Assembly (NCBI GenBank): GCA_951406725.2
Contig: OX597818.1
Location: 143,406,001 to 143,470,000 of the forward strand
Direction of reading: 5' to 3'
Length of the DNA stretch: 64,000 bases
Origin: Octopus vulgaris
Taxonomy: Eukaryota
Under the pieces are notes generated by a model, which ran no database searches, was not told where the DNA came from, and worked only from the letters and a program-made list of their open reading frames with translations. Positions within the stretch are counted from its first letter, which is position 1. Every line of letters starts with the position of its first letter. The translations under genes were made by a program, and so were the position numbers. Of the stretch, positions 1,663-25,903 are shown one piece after another.

Positions 1663-1702
1663 TTACTAGCGCTTTCGTCCCTTTCTAGAACTTATCAAAT
1701 AA
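1663..1702 (-). ncRNA. Minimal type I hammerhead ribozyme fold, U3-A8 core variant
   Basis: Minus strand reads UUAU-UUGAUAA-GUUC(UAGAAAG)GGAC-GAAA-GCGC-UA-GUAA. Stem I UUAU/GUAA, stem II GUUC/GGAC, palindromic stem III AGCGCU, CUA cleavage triplet. Confidence 0.6.
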
Positions 1703-1851
1703 AATTTTGTGAATGTACAAACAGCTTGTTCATTTATATAAAAGAGATATTTTGTGGGGTTTTGTTTAGAAGAGAACATTGTTTTTGTTTTTGTGGGGGG
1801 AGGTTCCATGACAATGGAGATGAATAGATAGAAATATAGGTAGATAGGCTG

Positions 1852-2190
1852 ATATATATATATATATATATATATATATATATATATATATATATATATA
1901 TATATATATATATATATATATATATATATATATATATATATATATATATATATATATATATATATATATATATATATATATATATATATATATATATATA
2001 TATATATATATATATATATATATATATATATATATATATATATATATATATATATATATATATATATATATATATATATATATATATATATATATATATA
2101 TATATATATATATATATATATATATATATATATAGATAGATAGATAGATAGATAGATAGATAGATAGATAGATAGATAGATGGATGGATG
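1852..2190. repeat. Compound microsatellite (TA)n ~280 bp followed by (GATA)n
   Basis: Direct reading. Confidence 0.97.
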
Positions 2191-2739
2191 AGTAGAAGGA
2201 AAGAGAGAGAGAAGGGGTATCCACCTTCCTCTTCACCATTCATTTATTTATTTATTTACTCAGTCCTTTACCATTGTATTGGAATGGGTTTTAGGATGGC
2301 GACGACAAATGAAATGCAGAAGACAACCATCAACCCATAAGTCCAAACACCTTAGATGGATAAATACAAAGGAAAAAAGACATGAAAGACACATAACATA
2401 CAGACAACAACCGACCCGTAATAACATGTACCCCAGACGGATGAATACATGGGAAGAAAAACAAATAAAATACAGGCAGCAGAGGTACTATAATAGGAAT
2501 AATAATCATTATGATAACTCAAGCAACCCACGATTTACGACCAAAAATCCCATATATCCTGAATAGTGAAAAAAAACATGGAAGATAGGAAGAAAACAAA
2601 ACTTATAACCAACGGAATTCGTATAAAAGACATGAACCGTCCTCCCACCTCCATGGAAACCAGAACGCCGAGAAAACGGAGTCATGGTAACACAATTCCT
2701 TTTTTAGGGAGAAAATACCAAAACCACGCATCGGACCCG

Positions 2740-4860
2740 ATAATACACAAAATTTAAATGAACAGACACAACATATAGACCCGAAGATCATAAATTTGTC
2801 AAATAAGAACCTCAACAAGAATGAGATGAACCTCCTATTAAAAGTTTTCAAGTTTACCTGACGCTCACCTTTAATCTCATTGAACTGAAATTTGGTATTG
2901 AACACTTCAACCATCACCTCCGACTTATAGAATTCTTCAGCAATAAAGATTTAAATGATGAATCAAAGTCAGAAATAAATCCCACTTCATCCACTACAAG
3001 GGAAAGGATAAATATTTAGACGTGTATATAGACACGATTTCAAAATTTCCCCCTAAAAACCAACAGATGCAAACAAAACCTTTGTGAAGAAGAAAAGGAA
3101 ACCTTAAAAACACTGAAGAATGACAACTCAATCATCGTAAAAGAAGGCGATAAAGAGGGGTGGGCGATAGTAATCATGGTCAAGGTCTATTATAAAGATA
3201 AAATATTGGAAATGTTAACAAACCAAACCTACTATAAGGAAGAACTACGACACTCAGAAAAATCGATAATGAATAAAATCAGAAGACTAATCAATGAGTT
3301 CCAAGATTCCTTCACAGACAAGGAGAAAGATTATATATGCAACTCTATAATCAAAGAGAGCAATTTCTTCTGATTGCCCAAAATTCACAAAAGCTCCGGA
3401 ATACAAAGTGCCATAAATAAGCAGAATAACCAGTAAGTAAAAATACTAAGGCCTGCTGAGCTCAGACTAAGACCAATAGTTACTGGACCTCAAGCACCAA
3501 CACAATAACTAAGTCATTTTTTAGATATACTCCTAAGACCTTCGTGCCCTTTAATACCCAGTTTTGTATGGGAATGGCAAAGATTTCATCCAACACATCC
3601 CTCCCACAGTCACAGAAGGTGCTATACTCATAAGTTTTGATGTCACCAATCTCTATACTAATATACCTCACCCTTTAGGTCTAAAAGCAATCAAACACTG
3701 GGTAGAAAAACATAGAGAGCGGATAAATGAATGCTTTAAGACTGACTTCAACACCAAGGCCACACGCCTAGTACTAGAAGAAAATACCTTTAGATTCGGC
3801 AATAAAACATATCGACAGTAAAAAGGCGTGGTTATGGGTACGCGGTTTGCGCCCTCATATGCAAACTTAGTTATGGGATATTTGGAAGAAAAACTTTATG
3901 AGGAAGTAGAAAAAGCTTTTGATCAGGAGTACAAGAAATATATCATTAAAAAGTGGAAGTGCTTCCTTGATGGTTGCTTCATCTTCTGAGACGAATCGAA
4001 TGAAGATCTAAATATATTTAACAATATACTGACCACATTTCACACGACAGAATCTAGTTGCAATGAACTACCATTCCTGGATATCCACATAAAAATACAG
4101 AACTTCACAGTCACAACAGACATATTTTACAAAAAACTGACACACACCGATATTTAAATTTCTACTTTTGCCATCCATCACACATCAAAATAAAAATCCC
4201 ATTCAGCATGGTATGACGCATCTGTGCTAGAGTGACTGACCCCAAAATACGTGAAATCCGACTCAACGAACTCGAAGGCTTCCTTACAATGCAGAAATAC
4301 CACTTAGTATAAATTAATGAAAGAATTAAAAAGGCGATGAAACTGAACATCACCCAACTACGGACACCTAAGGAAAAAGTTAATGAAAACACGATTCCGT
4401 TCATTAACACACACAATCCTGGAATAAACAACATCTTTCACGCCATAAAATCGAACTTACCTATACTCCTATAAAGCCCCAAAATGAAAACTCTGATTGA
4501 AAAAAAAAACACCTTACAGAATAGCAGATGCCAACCAAAATTTTTTTTTAGAAACACTCACAAGGGCAGAATTCAAATCAGAGAATGAATCAGAATTCTT
4601 AGTAAAAGAATGTGGAGACAGATGTGGAAGATGCAACAATATCAAAAACTTCAAATACTTGGAAAGTGGTTCCCACATAAAATTCAAGATCGGATTCCTT
4701 TTCAAAATAAATGCAGATATGATCTGCAAAACGCAAAAGCTCATATACTGCATTACCTGCCCAAACTGCAAAGATAAGAGAAAAAAAATCAATCAGAAAG
4801 GAACTCTATCTCACTCAAAATATCTTTTGATAAGCAACCGGTAAACTCTTACTTTTTTCT
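2740..4860 (+). pseudogene. Penelope-like element (RT plus truncated GIY-YIG), degenerate
   Basis: Broken frames carry PLE motifs IVKEGDK, LPKIHK, LRPIV, SFDVTNLYTNIPH, GVVMGTRFAPSYANLVMG, LPFLDI and CHPSHIK. A Cys-rich linker (CGDRCGRC) and LIYCITCPNC follow, ending before the YIG motif. Many stops and frameshifts. Confidence 0.88.
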
Positions 4861-4985
4861 TATACACTGAAATCTGACATTGAACTTTTCCACAAAAAAC
4901 TGTATATTACACGCTTTTACTAAATATCTTATTCTGAAACAGAACACTGTAAAAGACTCTTACTTTTTTCTTATACACTGAAATC
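4845..4985 (+). repeat. ~30-bp direct repeat (actcttacttttttcttatacactgaaatc) at the PLE 3' end
   Basis: Two copies, at ~4845-4875 and ~4956-4985. Confidence 0.8.
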
Positions 4986-5139
4986 ATTCACAAAAAATGA
5001 ACATTGTATTCTAACCCAATTTTTCTCTTTTTTTGTTTAAAAATAGAACTTTCACCTAATTAAATACACTCTCCCTTACTTAAATTATTTTGTCAGCATT
5101 TTCTTAACCGCGTTCATATGGCCTTCGTGGGTCTGTTCT

Positions 5140-23527: not shown

Positions 23528-24339
23528 ACAGAGAAGAAACACAGATATATATATATATATATATATATATATATATATATATATATATATATATATATAT
23601 ATATATACAATATATATATATATATATATATATATATATATATATATATATATATATATATATATATATATATATATATAAGACCGCATACCGAAAATTG
23701 GACTCGGGCATGACAGACCCTGTAATTCACAACCGCCAGACTTCGTATTCGTTATCTATTCCTTCTGTTTTGCATATGTGAATTACAGGGTCTGTCATGC
23801 CCGGAGTCCAACTTTGATAGAAATAAGCATTCTTGACTGCTATTTCTATTTTTCGGTATGCGGTCAAGCAACCTGTTTTGCCTGTCCCTTTTTCTTATAT
23901 ACAATATATATACTGAACTTTACAGAAGTTCCTGCCGGTAATCGGCTATATTTACATACCGAATTCTACCAGTAAATAATTGGGTTTTTTTAAAAGCCTT
24001 TATAGAAATTATTTACTCTTATCATATATATATATATATATATATATAATATATATATATATTATATATGTTTGTGTGCCTACAAATGTGTCGTGTGCGC
24101 GCGTTTGTCGACATATGTATGATGTGTACATGTATGAGGATCTGGAAGAGTTTTTTTCCGAACCGTATTTACAGATTCTACTGCAGATGCCATCACGTAA
24201 GTTCTATTAAAATAATTGTTAAGTTCAATTCAACAAACTATACGGCAGAACAGTAAAATAAACTATACGACAGAACAGCTCAACAAACTGTACAATAGGA
24301 CAGTTCAGCAAATTCTTTGGAAATGAGTTAAACAAACAT

Positions 24340-24557
24340 TATTCTTTTCTACTCGAGGCACAAGGCACGAAATTTTTGGGGAGGAGGCCAGTCAATTACA
24401 TCGACCACAATACCCAACTGGTACTTAATTTATCGACCCTGAAAGGATGAAAGGCAAAGTCGACCTAAGCAGAATTTGATCTCAGAACGTAAAGACAGAC
24501 GAAATACGGCTAAGCTCTTCGCCCGGTGTGCTAAAGTTTCTGCCAGCTCGCCGCCTT
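24340..24557 (-). mobile_element. tRNA-derived SINE (same family as 17263)
   Basis: Reverse complement of the ggcggcgagctggcag head and Meta-like core. Confidence 0.85.
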
Positions 24558-25367
24558 GTTAAACAAACATTATTGTAAAACAAATAACCTGGTTTTGCAA
24601 ACATATAGTCCAATTCTTCAGTAAAGTCGAGAATAAGTCGAATGAATTAACTGTGTACTCGAATGTTAGAAAAACAGTAACGGTGGCGGTGGTGGACCAT
24701 TTTAGTTGAATAAATAAATTGAGATAAGATAAAACAAACAACAAATGAAGAGCATTGAAGCATACGGCTGTCGGAGGTAGACGTAGTAAATGATATTGTT
24801 AACACGTGCACTCACCACGTATGTGACTATATAGTACATGTATTTCTATCTATCTATCTATCTATCTATCTATCTATCTATGTGTCTGTCTGTCTGTCTG
24901 CATCTCTCTCTCTCTCTCTCTTGATACATACATACATACATATATGTATGTATATATATATATATATATATATATATATATATATATATATATATATATA
25001 TATCTATACAATATGTTACATTACTCGGTATCTAAAACTCTGAGTTTCAGATGCCGAAGTGAAATCACAACACCATCTCATCGGTTATCTGCAGATAACC
25101 GATGAGATGGTGTTGTGGATTTCCACTCGCATCTGAAACTCTCTGACTACCGAGTAATGTAACATATTGTATAGATAAATTTCCTCTATTTACATAATAT
25201 TGAGGTCTCTTTCTTTCTTTTGTTATCTTACCGTTTTATCAATATATATATATATATATATAAATATATATATACATATATATATATAAAATATATATAT
25301 ATATATATATATATATATATATATATATATATATATATATATATATATATATATATATATATATAAT

Positions 25368-25712
25368 CTTTTACTTGTTTCAATCATTAGACTGCGGCCA
25401 TGCTGGAACACCGCCGTGAAAAAGTTTTAACGAATGAATCGACATCACTACTTTTATTTTTTTAATCCTGACACTTATCTTATCGGTCTCTTGTGCCGAA
25501 CCGCTAGAAAAAGGGGACATAAACGCACTAACACCGAATGTGAAGCAATGGCGGGACGGACACACACATACGTACACACACACGCACACACATATGAGGG
25601 CTTCTCTCAGTTTCCGTCTACCAAACCCACTCACAAGGCTTTGCTCACCCCGAAGCTATAGTAAAAAACAGCCCGGAAGCATATGATTGAGAAGCAAACT
25701 TCTTACTACACA
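25368..25712 (-). mobile_element. Composite SINE (3' part, (CA)n, head remnant)
   Basis: Reverse complement of the 50-kb SINE family. Confidence 0.7.
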
Positions 25713-25854
25713 CCCACCATACACACACACACACACACACACACACATATATATATATATATATATATATATATATATATATATATATATATATATATAT
25801 ATAAAAGAAGTTTGAAAACGCCACTATATAAGATAAATTTTAATTTTCTTAGAA

Positions 25855-25903
25855 ATTTTACATGTTTCGGTTCTTCTTGAAAAAAACGAACCTTATCAAA
25901 AAT
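25855..25903 (-). ncRNA. Minimal type I hammerhead ribozyme fold, U3-A8 core variant
   Basis: AUUU-UUGAUAA-GGUUC(14 nt)GAACC-GAAA-CAUG-UA-AAAU. Perfect 5-bp stem II, palindromic stem III ACAUGU, GUA triplet. Confidence 0.62.

Follow-up and report, generated by a model that had tools for sequence, protein, structure and literature searches.

Minimal hammerhead motifs with a U3-A8 core in tail copies of two putative Neptune-type Penelope-like element families of Octopus vulgaris

Two hammerhead motifs in the window

The DNA considered here, called the window throughout, is a stretch of 64,000 nucleotides from Octopus vulgaris (assembly GCA_951406725.2, contig OX597818.1, positions 143,406,001 to 143,470,000, forward strand). 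It is animal-type DNA, rich in microsatellites, from an A+T-rich genome of 2.8 Gb. Its minus strand carries two short motifs, site 1 and site 2, that have the form of minimal hammerhead ribozymes with U3-A8 in place of the canonical C3-G8 at core positions 3 and 8, and both lie among the remains of Penelope-like elements (PLEs; table 1).

Table 1. The two hammerhead motifs and the element remains around them (positions within the window).
Feature	Position	Strand	Details
Minimal type I hammerhead motif, family A (site 1)	1663..1702	minus	U3-A8 core UUGAUAA at 1698-1692, palindromic AGCGCU stem III
Inverted, 5'-truncated copy of family A 3' untranslated region / pseudo-long terminal repeat (pseudo-LTR)	1540..2303	minus	Sequence common with other family A copies
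Decayed open reading frame (ORF) of putative Neptune-type PLE, family A	~2304..4777	plus	Reverse transcriptase (RT) motifs, C-x3-CxxC linker, GIY-YIG start
Minimal type I hammerhead motif, family B (site 2)	25855..25903	minus	U3-A8 core UUGAUAA at 25899-25893, palindromic ACAUGU stem III
Solo 5'-truncated 3' end of putative Neptune-type PLE, family B (~270 nt)	25800..26069	minus	(TA)n end, ~58 nt beyond predicted cut

At site 1, stem I pairs UUAU (1702-1699) with GUAA (1666-1663), giving 4 bp with a closing U-G pair, and stem II (GUUCU/GGGAC) has 5 bp, including two U-G pairs, with AGAAA as the loop between its strands. The GAAA stretch occupies 1676-1673, and the triplet is CUA with A17 at 1667, 3' of which the cut is predicted. 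The corresponding parts of site 2 are a stem I of AUUU (25903-25900) with AAAU (25858-25855), a stem II of GGUUC/GAACC with a predicted extension to 10 bp with a bulge, and a GUA triplet that places A17, and the predicted cut 3' of it, at 25859. The initial annotation of this DNA had described both minus-strand motifs with their UUGAUAA core, GAAA, palindromic stem III, valid CUA and GUA triplets and 4-bp stem I, all of which we confirm; it was also right that stem II is paired at both sites, but that of site 1 has five base pairs, not four.

Both sites show the core known from PLE minimal hammerheads (C or U at position 3, U-G-A-N, G or A at position 8, A, together with GAAA, an NUH triplet and a paired 3-8), as well as the G10.1-C11.1 closure of stem II and the short stem I of type I. 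A descriptor scan of the window on both strands with six types of 3/8 core returned only these two matches. In both, stem I has 4 bp and stem II 5 bp, and the 4-nt loop III is palindromic. The full descriptor, which demands the palindrome, at least 3 bp in stem I and at least 4 bp in stem II, was found in none of 300 shuffles that kept dinucleotides within 200-nt blocks, and the loosest U3-A8 descriptor gave 0.26 matches per shuffle. Because no shuffle carries the full descriptor, chance is excluded and both motifs are genuine minimal hammerhead copies; the initial annotation had itself singled out composition-matched shuffles as the comparison that could overturn it. A search of Rfam at E up to 5 returned no hammerhead family among the 150 of 317 matches listed, these being look-alikes of microRNAs and small nucleolar RNAs driven by microsatellites.

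The window holds two further hammerheads, both with a 2-nt loop III, which the initial annotation missed while being right about the two it reported. One (20912-20877, minus strand) is a canonical C3-G8 minimal hammerhead with a bulged A after A9, five base pairs in stem II and a palindromic loop, and belongs to another very abundant family. The other (23519-23492, minus strand) reads CUGUUGA, with A6 changed to U; U3-G8, another reading considered for the motif at 23516, was rejected because the correct register is C3-U-G-U6-U-G8-A.

Elements that carry the motifs

The sequence common to family A copies occupies, on the minus strand of the window, positions 2303 to about 1540; its internal (TA)n/(TAGA)n run is expanded, and it ends in a (CA)n run some 80-95 nt beyond the predicted cut. 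On its right it is directly abutted by the family A ORF on the opposite strand, which contains many stops and frameshifts, breaks off inside the endonuclease and has no 3' pseudo-LTR of its own. Since a plus-strand PLE ORF adjoins it and 5 of 29 relatives show the same arrangement, site 1 lies in an inverted tail copy, truncated at its 5' end, of the sort usual for PLE insertions (PMC8557442), and the direct copy at this locus has lost its own tail. No ORF remnant was found beside the tail fragment of site 2, and the flanks of the two sites share no DNA similarity except short chance words.

Both motifs belong to multi-copy families. The sequence of site 1 has 8 matches in the genome at up to two mismatches (none in the control) and a relaxed family A pattern has 193 (again none), while a CAUG-loop pattern has 1276 (control 70), mostly family B among the first 100 listed. 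We inspected 1.5 kb of flanks at 29 family A loci chosen by their ORF, besides the window: the hammerhead region lies downstream on the same strand in 15, and the inverted upstream copy noted above is the arrangement at five. The locus L096 has a direct upstream pseudo-LTR that continues into the ORF. In family B the UUGAUAA motif lies downstream on the same strand in 19 of 25 ORF-chosen loci, one of which is that of the query itself (18 of 24 if it is excluded), and loci chosen by the motif carry, in turn, GIY-YIG or RT fragments. The pseudo-LTR position, on the sense strand 3' of an RT-GIY-YIG ORF, is thus that of both families, which bears out the PLE lineage proposed in the initial annotation. 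Its alternative of a retrozyme lineage fails for the window motifs: at neither site is there a short tandem repeat of the kind found in non-LTR retrozymes (monomers of ~150-400 nt), and both map to PLE tails.

The family B ORF matches Pfam RVT_1 and GIY-YIG, as does the ORF of a third family, in which GIY-YIG falls slightly below the cut-off. Family B has a C-x4-CxxC linker, a CxxC between GIY and YIG and two His (CCHH), and a C-x3-CxxC linker plus CPNC can be read in the family A ORF of the window; the combination that marks Neptune (CX2-5CxxC between RT and endonuclease, CCHH in a C-terminal GIY-YIG) was found. Families A and B would therefore be Neptune-type by these linker and endonuclease motifs, not by a tree with named references. 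As their ORF proteins are only 32-46% identical, the two window motifs are best regarded as distant relatives within this type. The word 'independent' used for them earlier holds in so far as the families are distant; their U3-A8 core may have arisen once or twice.

A further putative Neptune-type family with U3-A8, C (L127-L130, L192-L221), is young, occurring at 40 places with 99-100% identity. Its proteins are 61-68% identical to those of family B, and one copy (L128) has an open RT-endonuclease frame of 784 codons. In four copies of this family the frame from the first ATG ends at codon 411, before the RT part, a shared stop that may point to two ORFs or to a frameshift. Contigs of four runs presumed to be RNA span the end of the family C ORF and the hammerhead region, with no bearing on ends, strand or level. 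Relatives of family A were also seen (L131-L137) with U3-G8 cores, one with C3-G8, in which an additional C separates stem I from the core. Among them L131, with an ORF 76% identical in DNA to that of the window, represents a sister PLE family whose core reads U3-G8, in a register that the extra C makes ambiguous.

Core types at positions 3 and 8

To count core types, a single pattern for motifs with a 4-nt loop III was run across the genome; G5, GAAA, G10.1-C11.1 and NUH were preset in it and so cannot be counted either way. It matched 3947 motifs with U3-A8 (control 63), 406 with C3-G8 (control 14), 215 with U3-G8 (control 35) and 160 with C3-A8 (control 61). After subtraction of the control, U3-A8 stands at 3884, U3-G8 at 180 and C3-A8 at 99, and paired cores outnumber unpaired ones by a factor of about 15. 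The loop was palindromic, by eye, in 95 of the first 100 U3-A8 matches listed, the pattern having allowed the 12 of 16 loops that are not, and UUGANAA is kept at the level of families. The genome-wide match allowing U3-A8 and the family-level conservation of the core, the lack of which had been named beforehand as grounds for abandoning the idea, thus both came out in its favour. So did the warning that searches for CUGANGA miss the variant, a point also made in PMC4209133.

The class with a 2-nt loop III is larger, at 26,888 motifs (control 1,321), and by eye the first 100 of these listed contain no U3-A8 in register. U3-A8 as the majority core of the whole genome was accordingly rejected; it is the majority core of the 4-nt-loop class only. 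Nor is selection on the 3-8 pair strict, since a subfamily with mismatched C3-A8 has spread to 20 loci. The claim of selection on structure made in the initial annotation therefore survives in the large excess of paired over mismatched cores and has to be weakened by this subfamily.

The subfamily in question belongs to a retrozyme-like hammerhead family of 359-bp tandem repeats with a 6-bp stem I (L097-L103, L111-L113, L147-L165; e.g. G000:C4:80857199), which holds C3-G8, C3-A8 and U3-A8 subfamilies. We inferred an unrooted tree of this family from 41 rows (6 of 47, being short, were dropped) with positions 3 and 8 masked. A branch (88/89) has 24 C3-G8 rows on one side. Their sister group (92/86) is made up of ten C3-A8 rows, while the other side (100/99) holds five U3-A8 rows and two of C3-A8. 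The presence of both paired states in one family supports covariation, and the spread of the mismatched state limits how strict selection can have been there.

The 2-nt-loop class contains an abundant family with another altered core, to which the window copy at 23519 belongs. Of its 26,888 matches, the first 100 listed were read by eye: some 30 fall in the register with A6 replaced by U (A6U), compared with around 5 for A6 and 2 for C6. Among fetched copies (L222-L241), a sample picked mostly for that register, U6 is present in 23 of 27 parsed and CUGUUGA was confirmed; PLE ORF fragments adjoin 3 of the 20 fetched regions. The family probably runs to thousands of copies. We found no published description of CUGUUGA or A6U in Penelope hammerheads, and Lunse et al. 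2017 may already cover A6U or C3-A8. Together with the families above, it completes a series of mobile cores in this genome: C3-G8, U3-A8, C3-A8, U3-G8 (in the sister PLE family) and A6U. A separate array (L166, G000:C5:125262556-125262895) consists of head-to-tail 31-nt units, each with a C3-A8 core and a palindromic loop, without a stem I spacer.

Folding, proposed mechanism and the fate of copies

The computed energies of the single hammerhead folds are +3.8 and +2.9 kcal/mol, and those of the double-hammerhead dimers -11.9 and -10.8 kcal/mol. In the lowest-energy dimers both stems II form, together with an intermolecular stem III of 6 bp, so that, by computation, stem III is a palindrome unstable in the monomer and able to pair two copies; these predictions agree with the dimer model. 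In an active element, following PMC4209133 and PMC6765202, a transcript longer than one unit would be cut to unit length by its two pseudo-LTR hammerheads, paired through stem III, and circularisation may then follow.

Putting these lines together, we read sites 1 and 2 as minimal type I hammerheads of two Neptune-type PLE families that are distant relatives; the motifs lie in the 3' pseudo-LTRs, U3-A8 likely keeps their tertiary 3-8 pair, and slow cleavage is predicted in dimers only, by way of the palindromic stem III. We give this reading a probability of roughly 0.8. The window copies themselves are isolated insertions in partial decay. Neither adjoins a partner from its own family, and site 1 has wobble pairs where relatives show Watson-Crick pairs, so both are probably inert relics. 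Changes in the hammerheads of individual copies resemble those in the nearby conserved flank, as decay after insertion predicts.

Several observations weigh against this reading. In the lowest-energy predicted dimer of either site the A-U-rich stem I of 4 bp does not form, and a Schistosoma motif of this class showed no activity as a monomer and low activity as a dimer, its authors leaving other functions possible (PMC4209133). The core counts come from repeated copies within a small number of families and should not be taken as so many separate events. In the mismatched subfamily of the 359-bp repeat all 27 pattern matches are C3-A8, from 20 loci on 13 contigs, and both this state and A6U have become widespread, which shows that spread does not always require an intact core. 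The 3' ends of the elements lie about 55-95 nt beyond the predicted cut. A direct upstream pseudo-LTR is present at 8 of 30 family C loci, and all eight run through the hammerhead, none starting at the cut. In copies picked by the hammerhead pattern, the sequence extends upstream by 0-513 nt in 26 of family A and by 15-574 nt in 20 of family B; no pile-up of 5' ends at one site was seen in the short copies of either set, many of the family B copies extending 15-90 nt without a single shared site. Because the tails outrun the cut, the upstream pseudo-LTRs run through it and the 5' ends are scattered, the genomic copies bear no cleavage scar, and a circular or an uncut template fits them equally well.

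The same observations feed a competing explanation, namely that these motifs, derived from hammerheads, persist chiefly because they act as a signal for structure or dimerisation (two pseudo-LTR RNAs pairing, or binding of RT), with cleavage weak or dispensable and the core free to drift through U3-A8, C3-A8, U3-G8 and A6U. The uniformly C3-A8 subfamily, of which the ten rows sampled group together in the masked tree, the share of U6 among the 2-nt-loop matches listed, the U3-G8 core of the sister family and element ends that carry no scar would all be expected under it. The 15-fold excess of paired cores would not, and natural variants such as A6C retain low activity (PMC3088659); we regard this explanation as doubtful. 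In a broader form, equally doubtful to us, hammerheads of PLEs and retrozymes may lose most of their catalysis and still stay mobile, their main job being RNA pairing, and the 359-bp family would record a switch between U3-A8 and C3-G8 by way of a mobile mismatch.

Mutation pressure, in place of selection for pairing, is a much less probable main source of the U3-A8 core. CpG decay would turn G8 into A where position 7 is C, and A+T drift and founder effects in a few families could do the rest; family A and the C3-A8 subfamily indeed show C7-A8, as decay of C7-G8 would produce, the genome is A+T-rich, and few families supply most of the counts. Drift alone, however, would not raise U3-A8 so far above both C3-A8 and U3-G8, the paired states are the larger groups within the 359-bp family, and the identical swap is found in Schistosoma (PMC4209133). 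That the motifs are chance look-alikes in A+T-rich DNA, as their shortness, weak stem I and the Rfam result might suggest, we consider refuted by the shuffles, by families of hundreds to thousands of copies against near-zero controls and by the fixed position 3' of PLE ORFs.

Other features of the window

Elsewhere, the window contains a non-LTR element (60789-63916, minus strand) with open frames of 588 and 506 codons, in which endonuclease and RT were recognised by eye. Long inverted arms at 47195-52112, 502 nt at 99% and 254 nt at 95% identity around ~3.5 kb, possibly represent a DNA transposon or an inverted retroelement insertion. An (ATA)n run of ~3 kb, 99% pure, occupies 56129-59211, and fragments resembling mariner-type transposase, again by eye, lie on the minus strand at 5435-5860, 10898-11347, 30876-31391 and 33986-35077.

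Comparison with known systems and significance

The U3-A8 core itself is not new. Perreault et al. (2011; PMC3088659) reported natural C3-G8 to U3-A8 covariation in several hammerheads, citing earlier in vitro activity of U3-A8 ribozymes; the compensatory swap is the same as ours, and the available text does not describe those motifs as PLE dimer-type. Cervera and De la Pena (2014; PMC4209133) then tied ~1,300 U3-A8 minimal hammerheads, which their first descriptor had missed, to Cercyon PLEs of Schistosoma mansoni, with both UUGAUAA and UUGAAAA cores in the supplement. The novelty implied in the initial annotation for this core in PLE minimal hammerheads thus has to be given up.

With the Cercyon hammerheads the octopus motifs share the type I fold with a short A-U-rich helix I, G10.1-C11.1 and a palindromic helix III, the location in pseudo-LTRs, the occurrence mostly as single dispersed copies and inverted pairs, and the U3-A8 core. 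They differ in a loop III of 4 nt instead of 2 nt, in having no bulged base after A9, in carriers that appear to be Neptune-type by linker motif, and in that U3-A8 is here the majority core of the 4-nt-loop class. Compared with the Neptune endonuclease-positive PLEs of Craig et al. (2021; PMC8557442), we noticed no architectural difference from what that paper describes: the C-terminal GIY-YIG with CCHH, the CX2-5CxxC linker, the inverted 5'-truncated copy by the ORF, a one-sided tail of 30-40 bp and microsatellite targets are common to both, the clade being assigned by motifs, without a tree. The same paper states that the role of PLE hammerheads is unclear. Animal non-LTR retrozymes (PMC7229834; bioRxiv 10.64898/2026.07.22.740005) have their counterpart in the 359-bp tandem family with its U3-A8 subfamily, whereas the window motifs are PLE tail copies outside short tandem repeats. 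We found no published description of such motifs in octopus, the 2017 dimer paper lying outside the literature covered.

The finding is thus an ordinary new example of a variant in print since 2011 as a natural hammerhead and since 2014 in PLEs, to which it adds putative Neptune-type families of one more animal genome; the C3-A8 subfamily and the A6U family are stranger than the two sites themselves. For annotators it is a reminder that searches for CUGANGA overlook ~3,900 motifs in this genome alone. The genome also offers useful test material, in the young family C with its near-identical copies and open 784-codon frame, and in the near-isogenic C3-G8, C3-A8 and U3-A8 subfamilies of the 359-bp repeat, which would allow a clean test of whether the rate of cleavage matters for spread. 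If hammerheads do stay mobile after losing most of their catalysis, this would make the purpose of PLE hammerheads directly testable.

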